Under the pieces are notes generated by a model. That model ran no database searches, was not told the DNA's origin, and saw only the letters and a program-made list of their open reading frames with translations. Shown piece by piece: positions 4,248 to 43,771 of a DNA stretch of 64,000 nucleotides. The stretch lies in assembly GCA_049860595.1 (NCBI GenBank), contig CP187551.1. One strand, given 5' to 3'. This DNA is from Methanocaldococcus sp. 16A. Lineage in GTDB: Archaea > AGJL01 > Methanococci > Methanococcales > Methanocaldococcaceae. Position 1 is the first letter of the stretch. Every line of letters starts with the position of its first letter. The position numbers and the translations under genes are program-made.

Positions 4248-4344
4248 TATAGGACTTTCGTAGCTTTATATATTAATTTGGAATTTAGACACATTATAGG
4301 TGTCCATTGTTCAATAAAAAATTTGTTCCTGCGAAAGTCCTATA
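4248..4344. repeat. Palindromic MITE-like repeat, family A (MJRE-like)
   Basis: Perfect 13-bp terminal inverted repeat TATAGGACTTTCG/CGAAAGTCCTATA and central hairpin GACAC..GTGTC; multiple copies in window. Confidence 0.88.
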
Positions 4345-4379
4345 GTTTTGTACAACATAAATTTAAATTCTATATGTGA

Positions 4380-4566
4380 TGCTCAAACTTATATATATGG
4401 GGTCTTCCCGATGTAGTCTAATATATGAAAATTAAGACATTTAAAATAGCGACCATTATAATCAACTTTATAGACTACATCGGGATTGGGCTTCATTAGT
4501 CTCAACTCCCCTCTGGGTTCATTGGGGAGTAAATCATCGACCTCAGCCCCAGCCACGGGGACCCCA
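4380..4566 (-). ncRNA. Predicted omega-RNA (scaffold 4399-4566 plus ~20-nt flank-derived guide) of TnpB copy 1
   Basis: Closing stem UGGGGUC/GACCCCA, perfect 15-bp stem UCCCGAUGUAGUCUA/UAGACUACAUCGGGA, K-turn domain; covaries with copy 2. Confidence 0.72.
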
Positions 4567-5732
4567 ACTCCGTCTAAGAGTTTTTTAACTAATTTAACTC
4601 CTCTTTTAAAGATATTAAAAGAGCCAACTAATTGTCTATTAAAAGCTCCACATTTTTCGCATTTAACAACCTGTCCCTCTTGGGACTCCATTTTACTCCC
4701 GCATACGGGACAGGTTTTTGATGTGTAGTGTGGATTAACATAAAAAACAATACTCTTATATTCTAACTTTCTCGCAATACTTCTCCAACTCGTTCTATCT
4801 AAATCTCTGTTAAACTCCGAATTCTTATCATACATATTAAATTTGTTTAAATCTTCAAAGATAAAAATAGCATTAGGAAATAGTCTGGATAATTGAATAG
4901 TTAGTTTATTGATAAAATCATTAACTCGATTTTTTCTTCTATTGTAATATTTTCTTAACAATCTACCGATTCTTTTAGGAGCTTTTTTATAGATTGATTT
5001 TAATTTATCGATAATAGTATCATAAACCTCTTTAATCCAATGCAACTCGGATATATCAATCCTTATCCAACCCTCTGTTGGGTGATATAAATCTAATGAC
5101 TTTAAGTTACTATCAACTCCAACTACAACCTTTTTATTCGATAAATCAATAGGTTTTTTAAAAGTTATTAATGCCTCGTTATCCTTTAAAATAATCTCTC
5201 CTATGTCAAAATCTCTAACTTTATCAAAGAACCATTTATTTTTAATATCTAAAATTAAGTATTCTTTTCTCGGTTTTATAGTAATTCTTATTTCTCCTTT
5301 ATCTTTATTATATTTTATTAATGTTGTTTTAACTCTAACGAATGGTCTTTTAAATGTTGGTTTAATTCTTTTTCTTTTTCCTTTTAAATAATTAGATTTC
5401 CAACTTTCTATTGTAGAGTATGCTACTTTAATAGCTCCATCGACATAATGCTTTGCAAAATTCCATCCATTTAGTAATTCATTTCTTAACTCTCTCTTAA
5501 AATCCTTATCCTTAGGAATTTCTGGAATTAATCGTGTGGTAGTGTAGTGTTTATATTTGTTCCTCAGTTTATACCGATGTTTAACTATTTTTTCTTTCCA
5601 GTTTATGTTATTCCAAATAATATCTACTGCTTTTTGAGCAATGTTTATAAATTCGTATGGTAAGTTTTTTAAATCATAACTGTATTTAACTTTATATGTC
5701 AATACAATTTCACTGGGAAGTTTGTTATTCAT
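4389..5732 (-). CDS. tnpB: TnpB-family RNA-guided endonuclease homolog (atypical RuvC-III)
   Basis: VGVDSN (RuvC-I), FEDL (RuvC-II), TSKTCPVCG...CEKCG zinc finger; RQLVG where RD-x-NA is expected. Confidence 0.92.
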   Translation of the reverse strand: MNNKLPSEIVLTYKVKYSYDLKNLPYEFINIAQKAVDIIWNNINWKEKIVKHRYKLRNKYKHYTTTRLIPEIPKDKDFKRELRNELLNGWNFAKHYVDGAIKVAYSTIESWKSNYLKGKRKRIKPTFKRPFVRVKTTLIKYNKDKGEIRITIKPRKEYLILDIKNKWFFDKVRDFDIGEIILKDNEALITFKKPIDLSNKKVVVGVDSNLKSLDLYHPTEGWIRIDISELHWIKEVYDTIIDKLKSIYKKAPKRIGRLLRKYYNRRKNRVNDFINKLTIQLSRLFPNAIFIFEDLNKFNMYDKNSEFNRDLDRTSWRSIARKLEYKSIVFYVNPHYTSKTCPVCGSKMESQEGQVVKCEKCGAFNRQLVGSFNIFKRGVKLVKKLLDGVGVPVAGAEVDDLLPNEPRGELRLMKPNPDVVYKVDYNGRYFKCLNFHILDYIGKTPYI

Positions 5733-28125: not shown

Positions 28126-28193
28126 TTGGCGATGATGACAATTTCGCTATCTGATTTTTCAATTAATGATGACTACTCCCGCAGCTGAGCCAA
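28126..28193 (+). ncRNA. C/D box methylation-guide sRNA
   Basis: TTGGC/GCCAA terminal stem; C ATGATGA, 12-nt guide, D' CTGA, C' ATGATGA, 12-nt guide, D CTGA. Confidence 0.88.
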
Positions 28194-33889: not shown

Positions 33890-33948
33890 GGCAGATGATG
33901 ACGTTTATCCCCGTCTGAGTTGTGATGAGTAGCAAGCCGGCTGATGCC
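33890..33948 (+). ncRNA. C/D box methylation-guide sRNA
   Basis: GGCA/TGCC stem; ATGATGA-CGTTTATCCCCGT-CTGA...GTGATGA-GTAGCAAGCCGG-CTGA. Confidence 0.92.
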
Positions 33949-35352
33949 ACTTAAAACTGTTTAATTATCTATAGATAAAGATAGACATTTATAGGCAAAC
34001 TTCAGAAAAAATTTTTAATATACGATGGGTAATATAGCAATCTAAAAACCGAATGAACGATTACCATGTCAAACGAAGCAAAATCAAAAAACAACCAAGA
34101 ATTGTCCTATCAAATTGTTCTATCTTACAAGATTAGTCATTACTATCCACTTAAAACTTTTTTAACCGAATGCAAAGACAAACTAAACGAATGCATAGAC
34201 ATAATTTGGAATAATATTGAATGGACTAAAAAAGAACGACCAAAACTACCAAAATCAAACGAATTTAAGAGGAATTTAAGAAACAAACTGTTAAAAAATT
34301 GGAATTATGCCTCTCATTATATCGATGGGATTATTAAAACCGCTTATTCTATCCTAAATAGTTGGGCTTCGAACTATAAAAAGGGTTATAGAACGAAATC
34401 AAAACCGATAGTTAAAAGACCATTCGTTAGAGTAAAAACAACACTAATAAAATACAATAAAGATAAAGGAGAAATAAGAATAACAATAAAACCAAGAAAA
34501 GAATATTTAATTTTAAACATTAAAGATGAATGGTTTTTCGATAAAGTTAAGGATTTACCCATAGGAGAAATTATTCTAAAAGAAAATGAGGCATTCTTAA
34601 CCTTCAAAGATGCTCTAAACTATTCAGACAAAGATATAATCGTTGGAGTGGATAGCAACTTAAAGTCGTTGGATTTATATCATCCAACAGAGGGCTGGAT
34701 TAGGATTGACATATCTGAATTGCATAGAATTAAAGAGGTTTATGATAGAAAAATCGATTTTCTTAAAAAGTTGATTAAAAAGTGTCCTTTGAGAGCCATG
34801 AGAAAGATAAAAAGATTATTCGAAAGAAGAAGAAATAGAGTTAATGACTTTTTACATAAACTAACTACTCAACTATCCCGATTATTCTCTAATGTAGTTT
34901 TTGTTTTTGAAGATTTGAATAAAAGAAAAATGTATAAGCATAAAACTTTCAATCGAAAGTTGGATAGGGCAAATTGGAGTGAAATAATACAAAAAATTGG
35001 CTATAAGGCGATAACTATTTTAGTTAATCCTGCCTATACCTCAACAACCTGTCCTATATGCGGGAGTAAAATGGAGTCCCAAGAAGGACAGGTTGTTTTT
35101 TGCTCTAATTGTAAGAACTCTTTTAATCGCCAATTAGTTGGTTGTTTTAATATCTTTAAAAGAGGTTTAGGTAAAGTTAAAGATATTATGGGTGGCTTTG
35201 GGGTTACCACGACAGGGGCAGAGGTTTCCATTTGGAAACTGATGACGCCCAATTCCAACGTGGCATATAAAGTTGATTATAATGGAAAATACCTAATTAA
35301 AATTTTCTGAATGTCTATAATTGCCTATAAATGACCACGTTGAGAGAACCCC
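33949..35352 (+). mobile_element. Non-autonomous IS607-like element 2 (tnpB only)
   Basis: CC at both junctions (33947-48, 35351-52); ATAG(A/G)CA-like repeats near both ends in inverted orientation; left end homologous to element 1. Confidence 0.78.
34066..35310 (+). CDS. tnpB: TnpB-family RNA-guided endonuclease homolog (atypical RuvC-III)
   Basis: VGVDSNLKSLD, FEDL, TSTTCPICG...CSNC, RQLVGCFNI. Confidence 0.92.
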   Translation: MSNEAKSKNNQELSYQIVLSYKISHYYPLKTFLTECKDKLNECIDIIWNNIEWTKKERPKLPKSNEFKRNLRNKLLKNWNYASHYIDGIIKTAYSILNSWASNYKKGYRTKSKPIVKRPFVRVKTTLIKYNKDKGEIRITIKPRKEYLILNIKDEWFFDKVKDLPIGEIILKENEAFLTFKDALNYSDKDIIVGVDSNLKSLDLYHPTEGWIRIDISELHRIKEVYDRKIDFLKKLIKKCPLRAMRKIKRLFERRRNRVNDFLHKLTTQLSRLFSNVVFVFEDLNKRKMYKHKTFNRKLDRANWSEIIQKIGYKAITILVNPAYTSTTCPICGSKMESQEGQVVFCSNCKNSFNRQLVGCFNIFKRGLGKVKDIMGGFGVTTTGAEVSIWKLMTPNSNVAYKVDYNGKYLIKIF

Positions 35353-35372
35353 ACTTTTCTTTTTTAGAGAGG
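35199..35372 (+). ncRNA. Predicted omega-RNA of TnpB copy 2 (scaffold ~35199-35352 plus guide)
   Basis: UGGGGUU/AACCCCA closing stem, CAACGUGG/CCACGUUG stem, K-turn hairpin. Confidence 0.7.
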
Positions 35373-43711: not shown

Positions 43712-43771
43712 TGGCGGATGATGAACGGAGTAGCTGCTGAGCTGTGATGAGTGATGGGCGAACTGACGCCA
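43712..43771 (+). ncRNA. C/D box methylation-guide sRNA
   Basis: TGGCG/CGCCA stem; ATGATGA-ACGGAGTAGCTG-CTGA...GTGATGA-GTGATGGGCGAA-CTGA; T-rich terminator follows. Confidence 0.92.

Follow-up and report, generated by a model that had tools for sequence, protein, structure and literature searches.

The 3′ ends of two tnpB genes in Methanocaldococcus sp. 16A raise two questions: whether they encode guide-RNA scaffolds built around kink-turns (K-turns), and whether the host protein L7Ae could be a partner of those RNAs. Both genes lie in the window, the 64,000-nucleotide stretch of contig CP187551.1 that was analyzed here. Copy 1 is an open reading frame (ORF) of 447 aa (positions 4389..5732, minus strand; Pfam OrfB_IS605, 2.1e-07; Cas12f1-like_TNB, 6.9e-12), and copy 2 encodes 414 aa (34066..35310, plus strand). 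The OrfB_IS605 and Cas12f1-like_TNB matches exceed the curated cut-offs in both ORFs, and both are therefore TnpB genes. The ORFs are intact and their products 63% identical. The host genome (1.62 Mb in 3 contigs) contains, besides the two window tnpB genes, two short derivatives (L004 and L005) and a distant TnpB (L003); across the 40 genomes of the order to which the window belongs, 40 tnpB matches were found in 15 genomes at E ≤ 1e-30.

In most relatives of copy 1, referred to below as type 1, the end of a serine-recombinase gene lies directly upstream of tnpB, and in one of them (L012) the upstream gene matches MerR-HTH and Resolvase in Pfam. This gene arrangement suggests that the tnpB family is IS607-type, with the window copies, both of which lack an upstream serine recombinase, as solo members. 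The RuvC-III motif reads [D/N]R[Q/H] in 73 of 74 tails of the family, compared with DRD in ISDra2 TnpB, the third residue of which is catalytic. Alterations of the RuvC-III motif have been described in six large branches, some nearly exclusive to archaea, and many of these were argued to retain activity (Altae-Tran 2023).

The omega-RNA-type scaffold predicted for copy 1 occupies positions 4399..4566 on the minus strand, from the 5′ half of a closing stem to the transposon right end, as delimited by folding, covariation, the end of similarity among copies, and a score of 93.9 bits with R1, a covariance model of the K-turn-containing module (K-module). The last ~60 codons of the copy 1 ORF fall within this scaffold, and the ORF extends 10 nt beyond the right end. 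The closing stem pairs UGGGGUC, its 5′ half (4560..4566), with GACCCC (4399–4404), adjoining a predicted guide in the flank just 3′ of the scaffold (4379..4398, minus strand, length inferred); 88.6% of the cells of this stem (helix 1) are paired. A long stem (4406..4485, with 4471–4485 opposite 4406–4420, minus strand) has an AU-rich interior containing AAAGUUGAUUAUAAUGG; its helices 5 and 6 are paired in 98.8% and 70.7% of cells, and seven pairs change on both sides. In copy 2, the corresponding scaffold (35199..35352, plus strand), identified by folding, covariation, and an R1 score of 39.8 bits, has a closing stem UGGGGUU/AACCCC (35199–35205 with 35347–35352), a long stem (35256–35266 with 35331–35342), and a predicted guide at 35353..35372, likewise of inferred length, all on the plus strand.

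The first-pass annotation had described these folds from the two copies, and its coordinates and letters are exact for both scaffolds. Minimum-free-energy folding recovers the described helices in each (for copy 1, −63 kcal/mol with a z-score of −3.7, a stability that none of 200 shuffles attained; for copy 2, −47.7 kcal/mol with a z-score of −2.4, attained by 2 of 200). In 20 full-length Methanococcales copies, 90.2% of the cells of a 38-pair structure are paired, compared with 33–55% when the 3′ partners are slid, and 16 of the 38 pairs change on both sides, compared with 1–3. Homologous 3′ ends align with those of the window, and the likeness ends directly after ...GA(A/C)CCCC, beyond which the flanks differ from copy to copy. 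In omega-RNA loci, the scaffold lies within the element and the guide in the flanking DNA.

Given that layout, a scaffold within the element followed by a copy-specific flank after ...GA(A/C)CCCC therefore corresponds to a right-end guide-RNA arrangement. Together with the overlap of the tnpB 3′ ends, this bears out the earlier assignment to TnpB omega-RNAs and supports the view that both loci are right-end omega-RNA-type scaffolds of one archaeal TnpB family. At the gathering threshold, neither locus has a counterpart in Rfam, and relaxing the limit to E up to 10 returns only unrelated, chance-level matches (E ≥ 0.1); L003, L004, L005, L123, and L132 have no Rfam match at E up to 0.01. HgcC RNA (RF00062) and other Rfam families were ruled out as identities by the lack of a covariance-model match at the gathering threshold.

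Between the closing and long stems, both copies have an internal loop of the form GGGC-N-GA-... / ...-NAU-GA-N-GCCC. In copy 1, this loop opens a K-domain (4488..4549, minus strand), characterized by invariant cores and covarying helices, that comprises two putative K-turns and a K-loop: Kt1 (non-bulged strand 4539–4549, bulged strand 4488–4501), Kt2 (bulged strand 4533–4542, non-bulged strand 4499–4504), and a 7-bp helix with its K-loop cap (4505–4530), all on the minus strand. Kt1 and Kt2 stand back to back on a common 4-bp C helix, and the K-loop caps the helix above Kt2. In copy 2, Kt1 (35216..35250, plus strand) has the consensus G.A and A.G pairs, and a plain 7-bp hairpin serves as its C helix in place of the type 1 Kt2 and K-loop. 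The sequence has the features by which kink-turns are recognized, namely a 3-nt bulge, tandem G.A/A.G pairs, a Watson-Crick C helix, and an NC helix. A single sequence nonetheless proves little, as such a pattern is too permissive to carry weight: a loose K-turn description (4-bp C helix, 3-nt bulge, GA on both strands, and 3-bp NC helix within 90 nt) has 191 matches in the window and 102 ± 8 in 30 dinucleotide shuffles. The loose pattern is common by chance, and the case for K-turns must therefore rest on comparison.

Homologs were gathered by protein patterns from the N-terminal part of TnpB, independently of the RNA. They comprised seven genome-contig loci, including an Archaeoglobaceae MAG and an uncultured archaeon at 42–43% identity, and the best 80 of 131 confirmed metagenome loci, at 34–78% identity. 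Tails were located by a C-terminal anchor in 76 of these 87 loci (L034–L120), the other 11 being dropped as cut contigs. With the loci of the order, this gave 83 stretches, 62 of them unique. The alignment of the module (A4) contains 54 of the 62 unique stretches, at 34–100% protein identity; six type 2 sequences, which lack the inner module, and two mis-anchored ones were left out.

Across A4, the K-turn cores stand out against a mean column identity of 64%, and nine of the 16 invariant columns are K-turn core positions. In Kt2, L3-1b-2b is UGA in 54/54 sequences, 1n is A in 53/54, and 2n is G in 48 and A in 5, so that the G.A pair is present in 53/54 and the second pair is A.G in 48/54 and A.A in 5/54; 3b.3n is U.U in 45/54, and −1b.−1n is C-G in 32, U-A in 10, and U-G in 4 of 50 distinct rows. 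The K-loop likewise has UGA at L3-1b-2b in 54/54. Kt1 is more variable. Its L3 U, 1b G, and 1n A are each present in 54/54, preserving the G.A pair throughout, while 2b is A in 42, U in 7, and C in 5, and 2n is G in 31, A in 22, and C in 1. The resulting second pair is A.G in only 23/54 (A.A in 18, U.G in 7, C.A in 4, and others in 2), and five sequences have A.A at 2b.2n in Kt1 and Kt2 alike. The conservation of G.A pairs, which the annotation proposed as a test, is thus seen at the first pair of both motifs and is partial at the A.G pair of Kt1; the K-turn that it placed in both copies is Kt1, which is non-consensus (2b = U or C) in 12/54 homologs. At 3b.3n, Kt1 has a Watson-Crick pair in 28/54 and A.G in 12/54. 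Its −1n is G and its −1b is C or U, and C-G predominates among the pairs adjoining the bulges, which agrees with known K-turns.

The helices that join these cores covary. The earlier suggestion of a covariance model could be realized as R1, and in A4 the module helices are paired in 88.6% of cells, compared with 31–54% for slid partners. Two-sided changes occur in 11 of the 15 pairs, amounting to 141 cells compared with 10–25 for slid partners. All four pairs of the C helix common to Kt1 and Kt2 covary (94.5% of cells paired), and the NC helix is paired in 88.4%. Without any structure supplied, RNAalifold recovered the NC helix, the C helix, and the outer upper helix; in 9 of its 12 pairs, both partners change.

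The terminal loop differs among clades. By rule, 45 of 53 loops could be parsed (8 were not resolved), and 24 of the 45 end in GA. The window's clade and an Archaeoglobus-like clade have NAUGAACYC(A)AGA, which is K-loop-like with a GA end; one distant clade has GAUGAUAGAAA, and another has a 7–8-nt loop, GAUGAAA(A), which is more GNRA-like and which we would not call a K-loop. By eye, no standard K-turn register was seen in the long-stem expansion (…UCUGAUGG) or the Zn-finger hairpin of the window copies. Nor was a K-turn evident by eye in L003, which belongs to another TnpB family of the same genome; the K-turn module is therefore family-specific. On this comparative evidence, the K-turn module of the archaeal omega-RNA family is real and deeply conserved.

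The difference between the two copies was polarized with a tree of the TnpB protein core, from which the RNA-encoding tail had been removed. Type 1 and type 2 (the type of copy 2) group together (SH-aLRT 100) to the exclusion of the remaining clades, and the type 2 sequences in turn form a clade (99) either inside type 1 or next to it. As type 1 and both outside clades have Kt2 and the K-loop, these motifs were lost in the lineage of copy 2. The annotation had read these motifs as additions in copy 1; the protein-core tree reverses that direction, and as far as the tree goes, the triple module of Kt1, Kt2, and K-loop is ancestral and copy 2's lineage has lost two of the three motifs. Consensus Kt1 is found in 8/8 type 2 rows of alignment A1, and type 1 variants with C.A at Kt1 2b.2n retain Kt2 and the K-loop. 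Type 2 elements without Kt2 and the K-loop persist as intact ORFs in several genomes, and both motifs are therefore dispensable in at least one lineage.

The K-module lies inside the ORF, at codons 395–415 of copy 1, and its conservation could in principle be that of a peptide. The codon position of the U of each UGA differs between clades, with six frame combinations among 36 unique sequences in which the module is in the ORF (three further sequences have earlier stops, and six tails were unparsed: three type 2, two mis-anchored, and L092). In an alignment of 43 TnpB proteins, no column reaches ≥90% after G395, and the mean top-residue frequency of residues 396–416 is 0.41, compared with 0.56–0.63 in the core.

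Copies without a tnpB ORF retain the module as well. Within the window's order, 21 of 40 genomes contain R1 matches, 92 in total compared with the 40 tnpB matches; in the class to which the Archaeoglobaceae MAG belongs, 19 of 96 genomes contain them, a single genome having as many as 19. Twenty extra places that were retrieved are ~330-nt elements without a tnpB ORF, laid out as left end, hairpin, K-domain, short stem, and then ...GACAGACCCC. In these twenty together with L004 and L005 (n = 22, non-coding or decayed), Kt2 has 1b G, 2n G, and 1n A in 22/22 and L3 U and 2b A in 21/22; the K-loop UGA is present in 22/22; and Kt1 has 1n A in 22/22, L3 U and 1b G in 21/22, and 2b A in 20/22. Their helices are paired in 86.2% of cells, compared with 23–59% when slid, with 10 of 15 pairs changing on both sides, in an alignment that was fitted to R1 and is biased towards the structure. 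Selection on the K-turn motifs at the RNA level is supported because the cores are invariant, the helices covary, conservation is independent of frame, and the non-coding miniature copies keep the motifs.

Based on known K-turn RNAs, it is plausible that host L7Ae binds the K-motifs of the scaffold. The genome has two genes of the L7Ae family (PF01248). L7Ae-family proteins hold the L3 base of K-turns in a pocket, and L3 is an invariant U in all three motifs of A4. Kt2 resembles a box C/D K-turn (GAUGAU ... UGA, with U.U at 3b.3n), and archaeal box C/D K-turns with U.U at this position are unfolded in Mg2+ and folded with L7Ae (Ashraf 2017). K-turns with a Watson-Crick 3b.3n pair, as in many Kt1 sequences, cannot fold in ions alone (McPhee 2014). 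A more direct precedent comes from Pyrococcus abyssi, in which sRkB and sRkC are members of a repeat family, another member of which is the 3′ end of the OrfB gene PAB1452; these RNAs bind at least two L7Ae in EMSA, show RNase T1 footprints at KT1 and KT2, and lose the L7Ae shift in GA mutants (Phok 2011). L7Ae-bound small RNAs tied to transposase ORFs were found in Sulfolobus solfataricus (Zago 2005, as cited by Phok 2011), and two adjacent K-turns in RNase P RNA each hold one L7Ae (Lai 2017). We infer L7Ae binding from the box C/D signature of Kt2, the Watson-Crick 3b.3n pair of Kt1, the invariant L3 U, and the L7Ae genes, and from the sRkB/sRkC precedent and the adjacent K-turns of RNase P.

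A model consistent with these data is that host L7Ae would bind all three motifs, would induce or fix the kinked conformation of the scaffold and stabilize it at high temperature, and would possibly shield it from trimming; the working particle would then consist of TnpB, omega-RNA, and L7Ae. Taken as a whole, an omega-RNA scaffold with a K-domain that is bound by L7Ae and whose fold L7Ae drives or locks is probably, by a modest measure, the best explanation. Counting against the involvement of L7Ae are the degenerate Kt1 in part of the family, the type 2 elements without Kt2 and K-loop, the 7–8-nt terminal loop of a distant clade, the 4-bp C helix common to Kt1 and Kt2, which may be too short to seat two L7Ae, and the absence of an evident K-turn in L003.

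Alternatively, the K-turns could be pure RNA architecture for helix packing, or contact sites for TnpB, with L7Ae having no specific part in the RNP. The invariant U at L3, the base that enters the protein pocket, argues against such a purely architectural role. Riboswitch and rRNA K-turns do act without L7Ae-type partners, and the A.G at 3b.3n found in 12/54 Kt1 sequences belongs to a class that folds in ions alone (McPhee 2014); type 2 elements, having lost Kt2 and the K-loop, also indicate that the scaffold tolerates the absence of both. Set against this, the U.U of Kt2 (45/54) and the Watson-Crick pair of Kt1 (28/54) are of classes reported as unfolded without protein, related OrfB-derived RNAs bind L7Ae in vitro (Phok 2011), and L7Ae is abundant, with many K-turn RNAs bound in vivo (Daume 2017). 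Architecture without L7Ae is regarded as unlikely.

A role for L7Ae outside the effector, either as a regulator that represses tnpB translation or as a processing mark that defines and protects guide-RNA ends, as in box C/D sRNAs, appears more unlikely still. The motifs do lie inside the tnpB ORF and the K-domain near the 5′ edge of the scaffold, and Sulfolobus acidocaldarius L7Ae represses translation via K-turns in leaders and coding sequences (Daume 2017). Translation control, however, leaves the retention of the motifs in non-coding miniature copies unexplained, and a position near the 3′ end of a 447-codon ORF is a poor site for blocking initiation; moreover, neither role rules out a structural part in the RNP. 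That the region has no RNA function at all, and reflects a conserved C-terminal peptide, a DNA-level transposition signal, or chance, is very improbable and already disfavored: the region is coding and the loose K-turn pattern is common, but the UGA cores are kept across frame changes while the encoded peptide is poorly conserved, the compensatory changes and many G.U pairs fit an RNA on the tnpB sense strand, the motifs are retained in non-coding copies, and they lie 90–170 nt inside the right end.

Were L7Ae a component of the particle, the OMEGA/TnpB system described here would depend on a host RNA-binding protein, with consequences for how ancestral RNA-guided nucleases assemble and for why archaeal TnpBs may fail when only two components are combined. 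It would also inform the design of thermostable compact editors, by adding L7Ae or by using the K-domain as a handle, and the L7Ae-bound "transposase-linked" small RNAs of 2005–2011 could be re-read as guide RNAs. A stronger version, which we regard as doubtful, is that a TnpB effector widespread in archaea, spanning Methanococcales, Archaeoglobi, and hot-spring lineages, requires L7Ae as its third subunit; in this effector the triple module would fold the guide RNA at high temperature and miniature copies lacking tnpB would supply L7Ae-packaged guides in trans. An RNA-guided nuclease would in that case have borrowed the RNP-nucleating protein of box C/D, H/ACA, and RNase P particles. Even without L7Ae, the loci represent an uncatalogued omega-RNA family with a covariance model and abundant miniature derivatives.

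The literature offers several points of comparison. In full-text literature searches, no paper appears to propose L7Ae as part of a TnpB RNP, and no report of a K-turn/K-loop module in a natural archaeal omega-RNA was seen. Among 107 L7Ae-enriched RNAs, 32 mRNA fragments and 6 unknown sRNAs were reported by Daume 2017, the main text of which does not mention transposase, IS605, or OrfB; tnpB 3′ fragments may be among these RNAs. The RAGATH-18-derived reRNA of IS607 TnpB (Ren 2024) differs in being bacterial and ~73 nt long, from hosts without an L7Ae partner, and no RAGATH family matches either locus in Rfam at E up to 10. Archaeal box C/D sRNAs share with Kt2 the sequence GAUGAU ... [U/C]UGA, the U.U at 3b.3n, and the C-G at −1b.−1n. 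They differ in that here the stretches between motifs pair with each other instead of serving as 10–12-nt guides, and in that the order is K-turn, helix, K-loop and not C-D′-C′-D. A box C/D sRNA identity was ruled out on the grounds that the spacers form a 7-bp helix and that no Rfam C/D family matches at the loci; the Rfam C/D matches in the window to sR1, sR2, and sR39 lie at other positions.

The omega-RNAs (reRNAs) of IS200/IS605 and IS607 elements, as in the OMEGA systems and ISDra2 TnpB (8exa, 8h1j), are similar in overlapping the tnpB 3′ end, in ending at the right-end terminus with a guide from the flank, and in having a structured scaffold with a guide-adjacent stem. In contrast to these, the window family has no Rfam match and carries two K-turns and a K-loop, and its proteins have Gln or His at the position of the RuvC-III Asp of ISDra2 TnpB. 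The P. abyssi RNAs sRkB, sRkC, and sRk52 (Phok 2011) share several features: they stem from repeats that are related to an orphan OrfB (TnpB) gene at its 3′ end, sRkB and sRkC have two K-turns (KT1 and KT2), and the loci that express them have no full-length tnpB, just as the miniature copies of the window family lack tnpB. They differ in having been published before omega-RNAs, read as 5′-UTR or regulatory RNAs, and called P. abyssi-specific. L7Ae binding by OrfB-3′-derived RNAs was thus already published in 2005–2011, before omega-RNAs were defined. Finally, the double K-turn of euryarchaeal RNase P RNA (Lai 2017) is also a pair of closely spaced K-turns in a structural RNA of Methanococcales or Thermococcales. 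There, KT2 and KT3 are joined by a helix that serves the former as NC helix and the latter as C helix, and each K-turn holds one L7Ae; in the omega-RNA scaffold, Kt1 and Kt2 are instead set on one 4-bp C helix, one bulged on each strand, and the helix above Kt2 ends in a third motif.

Besides the two tnpB genes whose 3′ scaffolds carry the K-domain (the K-turns Kt1 and Kt2 and a K-loop), the genome from which the window is taken encodes a distant TnpB of a second family (locus L003, 1180–1660, minus strand), which has the canonical aspartate in RuvC-III and a 3′ scaffold unlike that of copies 1 and 2. By eye, no K-turn was evident in the L003 scaffold, so the K-domain is specific to one TnpB family, rather than a general archaeal feature. 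In the most distant clade of homologs (L077–L120), an additional hairpin, CCCACAGC-AAU-GA-CCC ... GGG-GA-GCUGUGGG, lies approximately 60–100 nt upstream of the closing stem and, as seen only by eye in the tail sequences, reads like a candidate further K-turn.

Two expansion modules of the scaffold are lineage-specific. The first, in 8 of the 20 full-length Methanococcales copies aligned, enlarges the long stem on its 5′ strand by an insert of two to five hairpins, including GCGAAGC-type mini-hairpins (L012, 2659–2883; also L013, L015, L016, L018, L026, and L029). The second is a linker insert of approximately 48 nt that follows the closing stem (L019, L025, L027, L028, L030, and L035); it carries a stop codon that shortens TnpB to approximately residue 391. 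The K-domain also occurs in miniature elements of approximately 330 nt that lack tnpB and run from a left end bearing a TATA-like box through a hairpin and the K-domain to a right end (L123–L142; for example, L123, 1–590). Such elements are plentiful in some genomes of the order, with 22, 12, and 10 matches to the K-domain covariance model in G039, G036, and G012, respectively. Miniature or short copies in the window's own genome are found at L005 (1458–1637) and L004 (1469–1638), the latter with decayed Kt1 and Kt2.

A hairpin of 10–13 bp spans the Zn-finger coding region (copy 1, 4668–4716, minus strand; copy 2, 35041–35097, plus strand), with compensatory changes between the copies, and is retained with a different stem sequence in the non-coding miniature elements. 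This hairpin may belong to an extended precursor of the guide RNA or may mark a site of processing.

Three box C/D sRNAs were identified in the window with Rfam, all on the plus strand: sR39 (28128–28190), sR1 (33890–33946), and sR2 (43714–43768). The left end of copy 2, from approximately 33946, opens with GCCACTTAAAAC..., which matches the opening GCCGTTTGAAAC... of the miniature copies, and adjoins or overlaps the final bases of sR1, placing the element directly at the 3′ end of a gene for an L7Ae-bound sRNA. The interval that separates the right end of copy 1 from the enolase gene contains a 12-bp inverted repeat, ATAGGACTTTCG ... CGAAAGTCCTAT (4249–4343); a word resembling it was found near L004.

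Copy 1 TnpB (4389–5732, minus strand) has Q367 at the RuvC-III position that is aspartate in ISDra2 TnpB, and copy 2 likewise departs from aspartate. Across the family (copies 1 and 2 and L034–L120), 73 of 74 members read [D/N]R[Q/H], with glutamine or histidine at this position. Nuclease activity should not be assumed. The motif fits the branches described as "RuvC-III rearranged" (Altae-Tran 2023).
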